Virus record (IMG/VR): IMGVR_UViG_3300011113_000747
Location: 1-64,000 of that record
Source: a virus
DNA length: 64,000 nt
Strand: one strand, 5' to 3'
Position 1 is the first letter of the stretch, and every line of letters begins with the position of its first letter. The notes beneath the pieces are model-generated. The model did not search any database, was not told where the DNA came from, and saw nothing but the letters and a program-made list of their open reading frames with translations. The position numbers and the translations under genes were made by a program. Shown piece after piece: positions 2,809-4,044 of the stretch.

Positions 2809-2849
2809 GCACGAAGTGTCACTAAAAGGAAAGTTAATATAATATTATT

Positions 2850-3110
2850 ATGAAAGAAATAATTTTAATTAATGGTGAGAATAAAGTTTTAGGTGTGTGG
2901 GTGGGTGTGTGGGGAGAGAAAATATGGAATGAGATTAATGAGGAGTGTGAGGTGGGAATGGAGTTTGGGGAGTGGAGTGAGGGAGAGGAGAGAGGTGATG
3001 GGTGGAAGATTTATGAGAGTGATGGTATGGGTGTGTTGGTGGTTGATGAGGGGAGGGATTGGAAAAAATGTAAGAAAGAGTATTGGGGGATGGTGTTAAG
3101 AAAATATTAA
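2850..3110 (+). CDS. Cytosine-free early gene, Glu/Trp/Gly-rich protein
   Basis: Promoter motif; no C in the ORF; protein lacks A, P, T, Q, H. Confidence 0.8.
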   Translation: MKEIILINGENKVLGVWVGVWGEKIWNEINEECEVGMEFGEWSEGEERGDGWKIYESDGMGVLVVDEGRDWKKCKKEYWGMVLRKY

Positions 3111-3150
3111 TTTAATTGAGAGCTTTTAGGAAAGTTAATATAATATTAAT

Positions 3151-3351
3151 ATGAAAATCATCGAAATTAATGTTGCTGAGAAGAGTGTTAAGATTGAGTA
3201 TGTGGGTAAAGAAAGGTTAGTGACTTTTAGTGATAATGGTGATATTGATGTTGAGCCTTTTGGTGACTTGAGTGATTGTGAAAGTGAAGTGTTGTTTGAT
3301 AGTATTTTGAATAGTGAAGAGATTAATTGTGCTCTTCCTTTTGAAGACTAA
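3151..3351 (+). CDS. C-poor acidic early protein
   Basis: Promoter motif; 12 C in 201 nt. Confidence 0.8.
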   Translation: MKIIEINVAEKSVKIEYVGKERLVTFSDNGDIDVEPFGDLSDCESEVLFDSILNSEEINCALPFED

Positions 3352-3431
3352 AAGAGAATTTGAGATAAGGCAGCAGGGTGAAAGCTCTGCTGCCTCCTCC
3401 CGTCGCTAAGGAAAATTAATATAATATTATT

Positions 3432-3713
3432 ATGCAAGAAATTAAAAATTATAATGGGCTTAGCAATGATGAAGAGGTGGAGTTGCTTAATGAGATGGTG
3501 GGTGAAATGTGTGATGAGTATGGTGATGGTTTGATTGGTTTGAGTGAGTTGGTGAGTGTGATTTGTGGTAAAGAGTTTTATAATAAGTATGATGATGAAG
3601 ATTTGGATTATGTGAAAGAGGTGATGAGGGAGTTTTGTAGGGTGAATGTGGAGTTTAATTTGGAGAATGAAGATGTGTATTTGGTGAGTTTTGTGGATGA
3701 AGATGAGGAGTGA
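3432..3713 (+). CDS. Nearly C-free, highly acidic early protein
   Basis: Promoter motif; only 4 C, all within the first 55 nt. Confidence 0.8.
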   Translation: MQEIKNYNGLSNDEEVELLNEMVGEMCDEYGDGLIGLSELVSVICGKEFYNKYDDEDLDYVKEVMREFCRVNVEFNLENEDVYLVSFVDEDEE

Positions 3714-3745
3714 AAAGGGAGAGGGAAAATTAATATAATATTAGT

Positions 3746-3988
3746 ATGAAAGAAATGAAAGTTAATATTGAAAATAAAGTTGTTGGAATTTTGGATGAAG
3801 ATAATGTTTTGGGGTTTGTGGAAGTGAATGAAGATGTGAAAGATTTGTGGAATGGTTGTTTGGTTGTTGAGAGTGGGAAGTATGGTTATATGGATGATAT
3901 GGTGGTGTTTGTTGGTGATAGTGAAGATGAAGTGAAGAAGGAAGTGAAAGAATTTTTGAAGAAAGAGATTGAAGAAAGAGATTGGTGA
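3746..3988 (+). CDS. Cytosine-free acidic early protein
   Basis: Promoter motif; no C; shares ENKV(L/V)G with ORF 2850. Confidence 0.8.
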   Translation: MKEMKVNIENKVVGILDEDNVLGFVEVNEDVKDLWNGCLVVESGKYGYMDDMVVFVGDSEDEVKKEVKEFLKKEIEERDW

Positions 3989-4044
3989 GGGGTGTGGAGG
4001 GGAGAGGTGGAAGGATAAGAAAGGAAAATTAATATAATAACTTT

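Follow-up and report, generated by a model that had tools for sequence, protein, structure and literature searches.

Cytosine-free early gene cassettes in a freshwater T4-like phage that very probably hypermodifies guanine

Selection has purged cytosine from the entire transcription units of three small early genes (here genes A, C and D), and in part from that of a fourth (gene B), in a freshwater T4-like phage. The units lie on the + strand of the window, the whole stretch of 64,000 nucleotides that was analysed, which covers the initial 64 kb of a genome that is complete at 184,542 bp and has 35.4% G+C. Where the sense strand lacks C the template strand lacks G, and the gene content of the phage indicates that it very probably hypermodifies the G of its DNA. 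We tentatively propose, with a probability of about 0.4, that the G-free template is a response to the phage's own DNA modification that eases transcription of these early cassettes. At the same level of belief, DNA in which every G is an (acyl)aminomethyl-7-deazaguanine would carry a transcriptional cost, which the three-letter early cassettes would escape, their template being the only modification-free DNA of the virion.

The major capsid protein and the portal of the phage are both of the T4 type, and its capsid identity to T4, KVP40 and CP220 is 30-35%, the same as between those three. DNA of the phage is found in freshwater, drinking-water, aquatic and estuary metagenomes from 14 studies. 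The assembly is circular, its first 127 bases being repeated at the genome end (IMG/VR class: direct terminal repeats), and therefore offers no sign of a fixed first-entering end. For this reason, the suggestion made in an earlier note on this DNA, that these are the first genes read from virion DNA, has as its one remaining ground the promoter class, which the neighbouring genes have in common with them. Among the relatives, G001 is complete, G002 is syntenic with 66% capsid identity, and G002-G005 are partial, the early region being absent from their contigs; G006 is a 12% fragment only.

The C-less sense strand, with its G-less template, to which the earlier note had drawn attention is real and consists of two C-free runs on the + strand between positions 2823 and 4040. 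These 1218 nt hold 31 C (2.5%), every one of them within 3123-3486. The tract and the features that follow it are listed below.

2823 to 3122, + strand: C-free run 1, 300 nt, spanning a promoter, gene A and its 3' spacer
2828 to 2843, + strand: early promoter box of gene A, GGAAAGTTAATATAAT, with a -10 that ends 6 nt upstream of the ATG
2850 to 3110, + strand: gene A, 86 aa, 0 C, 41% G
3151 to 3351, + strand: gene B, 66 aa, C-depleted (12 C, 6%)
3369 to 3394, + strand: C-containing hairpin 3' of gene B, GGCAGCAG..CTGCTGCC, lacking a T run (by sequence inspection)
3432 to 3713, + strand: gene C, 93 aa, 4 C, all within its first 55 nt
3487 to 4040, + strand: C-free run 2, 554 nt, spanning gene D, the greater part of gene C, the two spacers and two promoters
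3746 to 3988, + strand: gene D, 80 aa, 0 C
4045 to 4200, + strand: next gene, 51 aa, same promoter type, normal C (14%)
4223 to 4253, + strand: intrinsic-terminator-like hairpin with a T run, at the end of the co-directional block

How unusual are these runs? The third-longest C-free run in all 184,542 bp of the genome measures 64 nt, and about 56 nt is expected by chance. Elsewhere in the genome, segments of 200 nt contain at least 12 C, the genome mean being 33.8 with a standard deviation of 7.6. Counted on the sense strand, genes A, B, C and D contain 0, 12 (6%), 4 (1.4%) and 0 C, such that among the 64 genes with the same promoter these four stand at 0, 0, 1.4 and 6% C and the others at 10-23%, with a median of 16%. 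With the remaining early genes as the codon-usage reference, the avoidance of C at synonymous sites has, by itself, a P of ~1e-38. The exclusion extends to the proteins, which are limited to 15 amino acids: all codons for Ala, Thr, Pro and His require C, and a single Gln is kept, at codon 2 of gene C. In the C-free genes G makes up 33-41% of the sense strand and C 0-1.4%, and synonymous sites are enriched in G, with GAG at 61 vs 35%, GTG at 74 vs 27% and GGG at 28 vs 9%. The T content of the C-free stretch is not raised (31% vs 32%).

The four genes belong to a large array of cassettes. From ~157 kb across the origin to 7 kb, the small genes are each preceded by AAGGAA(A/C)-N4-5-TATAATA-N5-6-ATG, a box that occurs ahead of ~64 small genes and also ahead of tRNA genes. 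The rationale for reading this box as a promoter is that it stands before the tRNA genes without a following ATG, and a -10 ending 6 nt from the ATG indicates that the early mRNAs of these genes are probably leaderless. In natural strain variants, whole cassettes are missing or swapped with junctions exactly at promoters; the observed joints connect 2826 to 3128, 2537 to 2824 and 2532 to 3128, and loose ends lie directly behind promoters. Gene A is missing from some strains, and different relatives bear different C-free families. Proteins A-D have no Pfam or PHROGs match, and proteins A and C have no tblastn match in cultured phages. One RNA-library contig of 151 nt covers 3753-3903 in gene D, a weak hint of expression, and parts of the stretch lying outside such cover are not to be taken as silent.

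The C-free state is shared by diverged relatives. Blocks of 0.5-2.3 kb are C-free in relatives L001-L004 and L007 at 49-62% protein identity: the metagenome loci L001 and L004 have a nearly C-free block of ~2.3 kb, and C-free runs measure 581 nt in L002 and 504 nt in L003. In L007, 1700 nt with four to five genes contain 5 C, each of them part of the GGAAC promoter box ahead of the -10, and this places the constraint on the transcribed part, leaders and spacers included, rather than on the DNA as such. Homologues of protein C with 57-96% identity are likewise without Ala, Thr, Pro and His, and across the phages compared, eight or more protein families with no relation to each other have a C-free representative. 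In family A some members (P0012, P0013 and P0015) are normal in composition and use Ala, Thr, His and Gln, and one of these is encoded in a syntenic early region whose C content is 15%; the C-free state is therefore a derived one, to which ordinary proteins have been made to conform. Where family C occurs behind another promoter type, in a separate lineage, its homologues are depleted of C without being free of it, at 6.7-7.6% vs 12-25% in their neighbours. Searches of IMG/VR returned 0 loci for family C, one for family A, only itself for gp143 of the Flavobacterium phage immuto, and 0 for the L005 homologue.

Natural variation follows the same rule. Run 1 has 0 SNPs in two strain-variant metagenome data sets and its flanks have 13, and the seven SNPs of run 2 in natural variants include none to C, with changes to C present in the flanks. 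Could the tract nevertheless be without function, a product of chance, of assembly or of C to T deamination on one strand? In favor of this reading there is the skew itself and nothing more. Chance is rejected by the P value at synonymous sites, and an assembly artefact by the presence of the stretch in metagenomes from 14 studies. C-to-T hypermutation is rejected because T is flat while G is up and the ORFs are intact and conserved; unraised T together with G enrichment at synonymous sites excludes simple C-to-T decay. Since the C-free state is moreover kept at 57-62% protein identity, we regard the probability of this reading as practically negligible.

The same genome carries the genes for replacing G with 7-deazaguanine derivatives. 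Of those named in the earlier note, folE, queD, queE and queF are all present (QueE as a QueE-like enzyme), with QueC in addition, and the TGT/DpdA-like gene is a 270-aa homologue of DpdA3. Their positions are as follows.

23088 to 23900, + strand: DpdA3-type DNA 7-deazaguanine transglycosylase, 270 aa, predicted from homology and fold
23897 to 24442, + strand: GNAT acetyltransferase, in the slot that formyltransferase DpdN occupies in immuto
24439 to 24999, + strand: AAA_28 or 'thymidylate kinase'-like gene, conserved between DpdA3 and QueF
25007 to 25921, + strand: QueF, the preQ0 to preQ1 reductase
46347 to 47123, - strand: QueE-like radical SAM enzyme
47913 to 48599, - strand: QueD
48741 to 49352, + strand: FolE, GTP cyclohydrolase I
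76.8 to 77.5 kb of the genome: QueC

Searches of the genome with Pfam PF01702 (TGT), phrog_887, phrog_7068 and the DpdA of phage 9g missed the transglycosylase, which is a false negative. The predicted protein is 49.6% identical to the DpdA of immuto (tblastn E 4e-67), 47% identical to a protein of Campylobacter phage CP220 (E 1e-57) and 26.7% identical to CGPG_00065 of Cellulophaga phage phiST (E 7e-7), and a profile from 35 homologues matches the records of all three phages. While searches of the PDB by sequence gave no match, an AF2 model built on 35 homologues (pLDDT 93.7) retrieved tRNA-guanine transglycosylases, of the TGT-type TIM-barrel, as 50 of the top 50 Foldseek matches in the PDB (E ~1e-8, probability 1.00). 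CGPG_00065 is the founding protein of the DpdA3 subfamily (Hutinet et al. 2023, PMC10516641). No other subfamily is as efficient, and in CP220, phiST and immuto DpdA3 modified the genome completely (PMC10516641). The main text of that paper leaves C-free genes and transcription unmentioned, with 0 occurrences of the word 'transcription'.

The gene order DpdA3, transferase, kinase-like gene, QueF is identical in immuto and the present phage, with QueF two genes downstream of DpdA3 in each, and immuto is similar also in having one near-C-free early gene, gp143. The two differ in the transferase, which is a GNAT acetyltransferase here and the formyltransferase DpdN in immuto; DpdN was found nowhere in the phage genome. 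It is because a DpdA3 orthologue and the full preQ1 pathway occur together, in a gene order like that of immuto, that hypermodification of G is judged to be very probable, and this half of the earlier note's reading is well supported on grounds of homology.

A scan of ten complete genomes for ORFs of at least 55 aa in which any base makes up less than 3% of the sense strand returned ORFs that were always C-poor. These near-C-free ORFs were restricted to this phage, to G001, with a single such gene of 321 nt and 2 C, and to cultured immuto, whose gp143 (5 C in 357 nt) is annotated as a CDS and lies in an array of small genes delimited by promoters; each of these three genomes has both DpdA3 and QueF. 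In the same scan, 0 near-C-free ORFs were found in CP220 and phiST, which have DpdA3 without QueF and smaller amido or H adducts, in KVP40, pf16 and Vibrio phages 1.081.O and 2.275.O, which have QueF without DpdA3, and in T4, in which all C is modified. The tally is thus 3/3 genomes with DpdA3 and QueF, from two deep lineages, vs 0/7 others, in a small sample that host phylum may confound. The distance between immuto and this phage is no smaller than that of T4 or KVP40 (30-35% identity of the major capsid protein), and the link to DpdA3 and QueF is therefore not simply phylogeny. The distribution is suggestive of near-C-free genes tracking DpdA3 plus QueF in two deep lineages.

A fundamental question is how would a template without G benefit the phage? 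Genes A, C and D, and partly B, would be ordinary small early genes, each with an early promoter of its own and probably leaderless. Given DpdA3 and the preQ1 pathway, every G of the virion is expected to be a 7-(amino- or acylamino)methyl-7-deazaguanine. In the C-free units the modified bases would then all stand on the non-template strand and the template strand would have none, such that an unprepared host RNA polymerase could read a few time-critical, swappable cassettes from freshly injected modified DNA without a template cost. A related possibility is that C-free units escape collisions with DpdA3 acting on the template.

Several observations count for this modified-template model: the uniqueness of the runs, the long-lived selection and the co-occurrence with DpdA3 and QueF, as well as the finding that whole transcription units are free of template G and upstream promoter elements are exempt. 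Substituents on 7-deazaG are also the most inhibitory base modification tested for bacterial RNA polymerases (PMC4838386). However, 7-deazaG itself is fully tolerated by the E. coli and B. subtilis enzymes, and vinyl or ethynyl 7-deazaG inhibit initiation with no paused complexes, elongation being unslowed even by phenyl (PMC4838386). This in vitro effect on initiation rather than elongation argues against the model, with the reservation that the 7-substituents used differ from those of the phage (PMC4838386). The ~60 early genes with the same promoter also count against it, as they keep 10-23% C and, like the tRNA genes, which are normal too, have to be transcribed from this very DNA. In large genes sense C amounts to 15.6% here vs 13.9% in G002, in which DpdA3, QueF, QueE, QueD, FolE and QueC are absent from every syntenic slot, and large genes therefore give no sign of template-G avoidance. 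Further points against the model are that it does not predict the G enrichment at synonymous sites, that fully modified T4, CP220 and phiST have no C-free genes, that the phage can do without the cassettes (some strains lack gene A), and that the comparison sets two independent lineages against seven with host phylum possibly confounding.

An alternative hypothesis is that the constraint acts on the RNA. Rho loads on YC steps in C-rich, G-poor RNA, and a leaderless nascent RNA that is without C, rich in G and uncovered by ribosomes would offer a putative host Rho no loading site. This is the closest documented mechanism, as a purine bias of sense strands is documented to protect against Rho termination when translation lags behind transcription (PMC13323073). 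In the C-free genes the lack of C is accompanied by G enrichment at synonymous sites, and avoidance of Rho predicts that enrichment. It also predicts a purine before residual C, and 23 of the 27 residual C in near-C-free genes are preceded by a purine and so do not form YC steps; the depletion of C is graded among homologues and lineages (0-1.4%, 6-8% and 11%), and the 6 nt between -10 and ATG imply leaderless mRNAs. Yet Rho needs many C over ~80 nt, so that purging the last few gains nothing, and 554 nt are nonetheless found with 0. Moreover, just 3-4 of ~64 sister genes are affected, the restriction to genomes with DpdA3 and QueF is not predicted, and phiST infects a flavobacterium and has no C-free genes. 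On balance we consider escape from Rho unlikely. A rather small chance is given to the hypothesis that the units can be finished when CTP is scarce, or when a putative host viperin supplies the chain terminator ddhCTP. Prokaryotic viperins that make ddhCTP are known, and the use of C-less or G-less cassettes in the absence of one NTP is standard practice, a synthetic analogue of what is supposed here. A cost that multiplies with each C fits a complete lack of C as well as the survival of a few tolerated ones, and a constraint extending over UTRs and spacers, beyond codons, is in keeping with it. Gene C, however, has its residual C at +4, +28, +33 and +55, and its relatives hold 3 C within the first 25 nt, where polymerase would stall without CTP, which contradicts the all-or-none, CTP-free form of the hypothesis. 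Neither the G enrichment nor the link to DpdA3 and QueF is predicted, and a literature search combining ddhCTP, phage and cytosine content gave nothing relevant.

A C-free mRNA might instead be immune to attack on RNA that depends on C, that is, to mRNA interferases and cytidine deaminases, while being nearly free of structure. Recognition sites of the MazF/PemK type that are known to us all contain C, engineered ACA-less mRNAs that resist MazF are an established concept and set a precedent, and the genes are variable accessory cassettes of the kind typical for anti-defence genes. The predicted minimum free energy per nt of the C-free mRNAs is -0.03 to -0.10 vs -0.235 ± 0.029 for 39 sister genes, so these mRNAs would indeed be nearly unstructured. 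Dodging a few motifs would nevertheless suffice without the exclusion of a whole base, and as the link to DpdA3 and QueF is again not predicted, we see only a slim chance for this explanation. The chance is very slim for a role in nucleic acid structure, either as stable R-loops on the C-rich template, for example in replication priming, or as G-quadruplexes. The origins oriF and oriG of T4 use R-loops, and a sense strand with 33-41% G, enriched at synonymous sites, is what such structures would favor; zero C, however, is not required for R-loops, and conserved protein genes of many unrelated families, variable in number and absent in some strains, are ill-suited to an origin. The earlier note had raised G-quadruplexes as well, quoting a G-rich string that is located at ~2967-2988. 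Canonical motifs (four runs of G3+ with loops of 1-7 nt) number 0 on both strands of the whole genome, and 7-deaza-G lacks the N7 that G-tetrads need. The quadruplex reading is rejected for these reasons, and on virion DNA the two halves of the earlier proposal, G modification and G-quadruplexes, are mutually exclusive. Some cause other than all those named has a small chance.

Where does this leave the C-free units among known systems? The Rho-avoiding purine bias (Dierksheide et al. 2026, PMC13323073) resembles them in having a C-poor, purine-rich sense strand, a constraint on the nascent RNA or transcription unit, and an imprint on codon usage. It differs in being a genome-wide statistical tendency, whereas in the phage one base is excluded absolutely from a handful of genes, five amino acids are given up for it, and T is undepleted. 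Synthetic G-less or C-less cassettes and ACA-less mRNAs are alike in leaving out one base or motif to escape a stopping condition, but these are man-made and the phage units are natural. Arbiol et al. are said to have described in 2010 the PeSL modules of T4-type phages, which reportedly are promoter-bounded cassettes of early genes. With these the present array shares many tiny early genes behind near-identical promoters of their own, and the gain and loss of whole cassettes at promoter junctions; no compositional rule is known to be described for PeSL cassettes, and the C-free units have no stem-loop between cassettes, because G-C stems need C. In the searchable literature we found neither cytosine-free genes nor any other natural exclusion of a whole base from protein-coding sequence, and a selected one-base exclusion that costs five amino acids across diverged phages is undescribed there.

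Immuto offers a cultured test system in gp143, with a DNA chemistry that is already solved and in which the modified base is fdPreQ1, and the C-free units could be used as natural 'C-less cassettes' in studies of transcription. Should the cause lie in the RNA, be it Rho, CTP or ddhCTP, or nucleases, these genes would mark a host pressure that rewrites the alphabet of anti-host genes. If our preferred reading of a G-free template as a response to DNA modification is true, the influence of base hypermodification on gene composition reaches as far as the set of amino acids in use, and the C-free units of this phage and its relatives would be the first evidence that such modification burdens transcription and that a genome can adapt to it strand by strand.

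In the putative G-modification cluster of the phage (23088-25921), one gene lies downstream of DpdA3 and ahead of the kinase-like gene and QueF:

23897-24442, plus strand, GNAT acetyltransferase

In the cultured Flavobacterium phage immuto, the same slot is occupied by the preQ1 formyltransferase DpdN, whereas the phage studied here has the GNAT acetyltransferase instead, and no Formyl_trans_N domain was found across its whole genome. Together, the gene content of this slot and the lack of that domain suggest that the modified base would be 7-(acetylamino)methyl-7-deazaguanine or a different acyl derivative. 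The DpdA3 paper (PMC10516641) does not use the term 'acetyl'.

A syntenic relative, the 87-kb contig IMGVR_UViG_3300027759_000070, has a capsid protein 66% identical to that of this phage and looks, from its gene content, like a natural sister without the modification pathway. DpdA3, QueF, QueE, QueD, FolE and QueC are absent at all syntenic positions, but the contig does not include the early region.

The early promoter AAGGAA(A/C)-N4-5-TATAATA is present in ~70 copies at genome positions 157-184.5 kb and window positions 1-7000, and also at 49-57 kb; no conserved -35 element was found among the ~70 copies. The early mRNAs are probably leaderless, because the -10 element ends 6 nt upstream of the ATG. 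The same predicted promoter box drives the tRNA genes and the small early genes. A complete relative genome (G001) uses ordinary TTGAC-N17-TATAAT promoters; its -10-to-ATG spacing is equal. At 2532-3128, whole early cassettes are missing or swapped in natural strain variants, with junctions that fall within the repeated promoters (2826 to 3128, 2537 to 2824 and 2532 to 3128), and other strains carry different genes downstream of an identical promoter.

One further structured element lies between a terminator (4223-4253) and a minus-strand gene (4469-4819):

4280-4400, C-rich structured stretch with hairpin region GGGGAAGAGCGCCCCCC

It is kept in two relatives' loci (L001 and L004), where it adjoins the C-free block. 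In another relative, with a family A gene of normal composition (IMGVR_UViG_3300042879_005897, 2100-3700), the small-gene leaders are A/C-rich and almost G-free (e.g. ACCCAATACCAAAAACAAGCAAC), which is an oddity of another kind than the C-free genes.

In metagenomes, Tara included, the DpdA3 family (with its member here at 23088-23900) comprises 4122 clusters at a cutoff of E<=1e-3. That so large a family has no Pfam domain, and is annotated merely as 'hypothetical', raises the prospect that complete G replacement may be common among aquatic phages.
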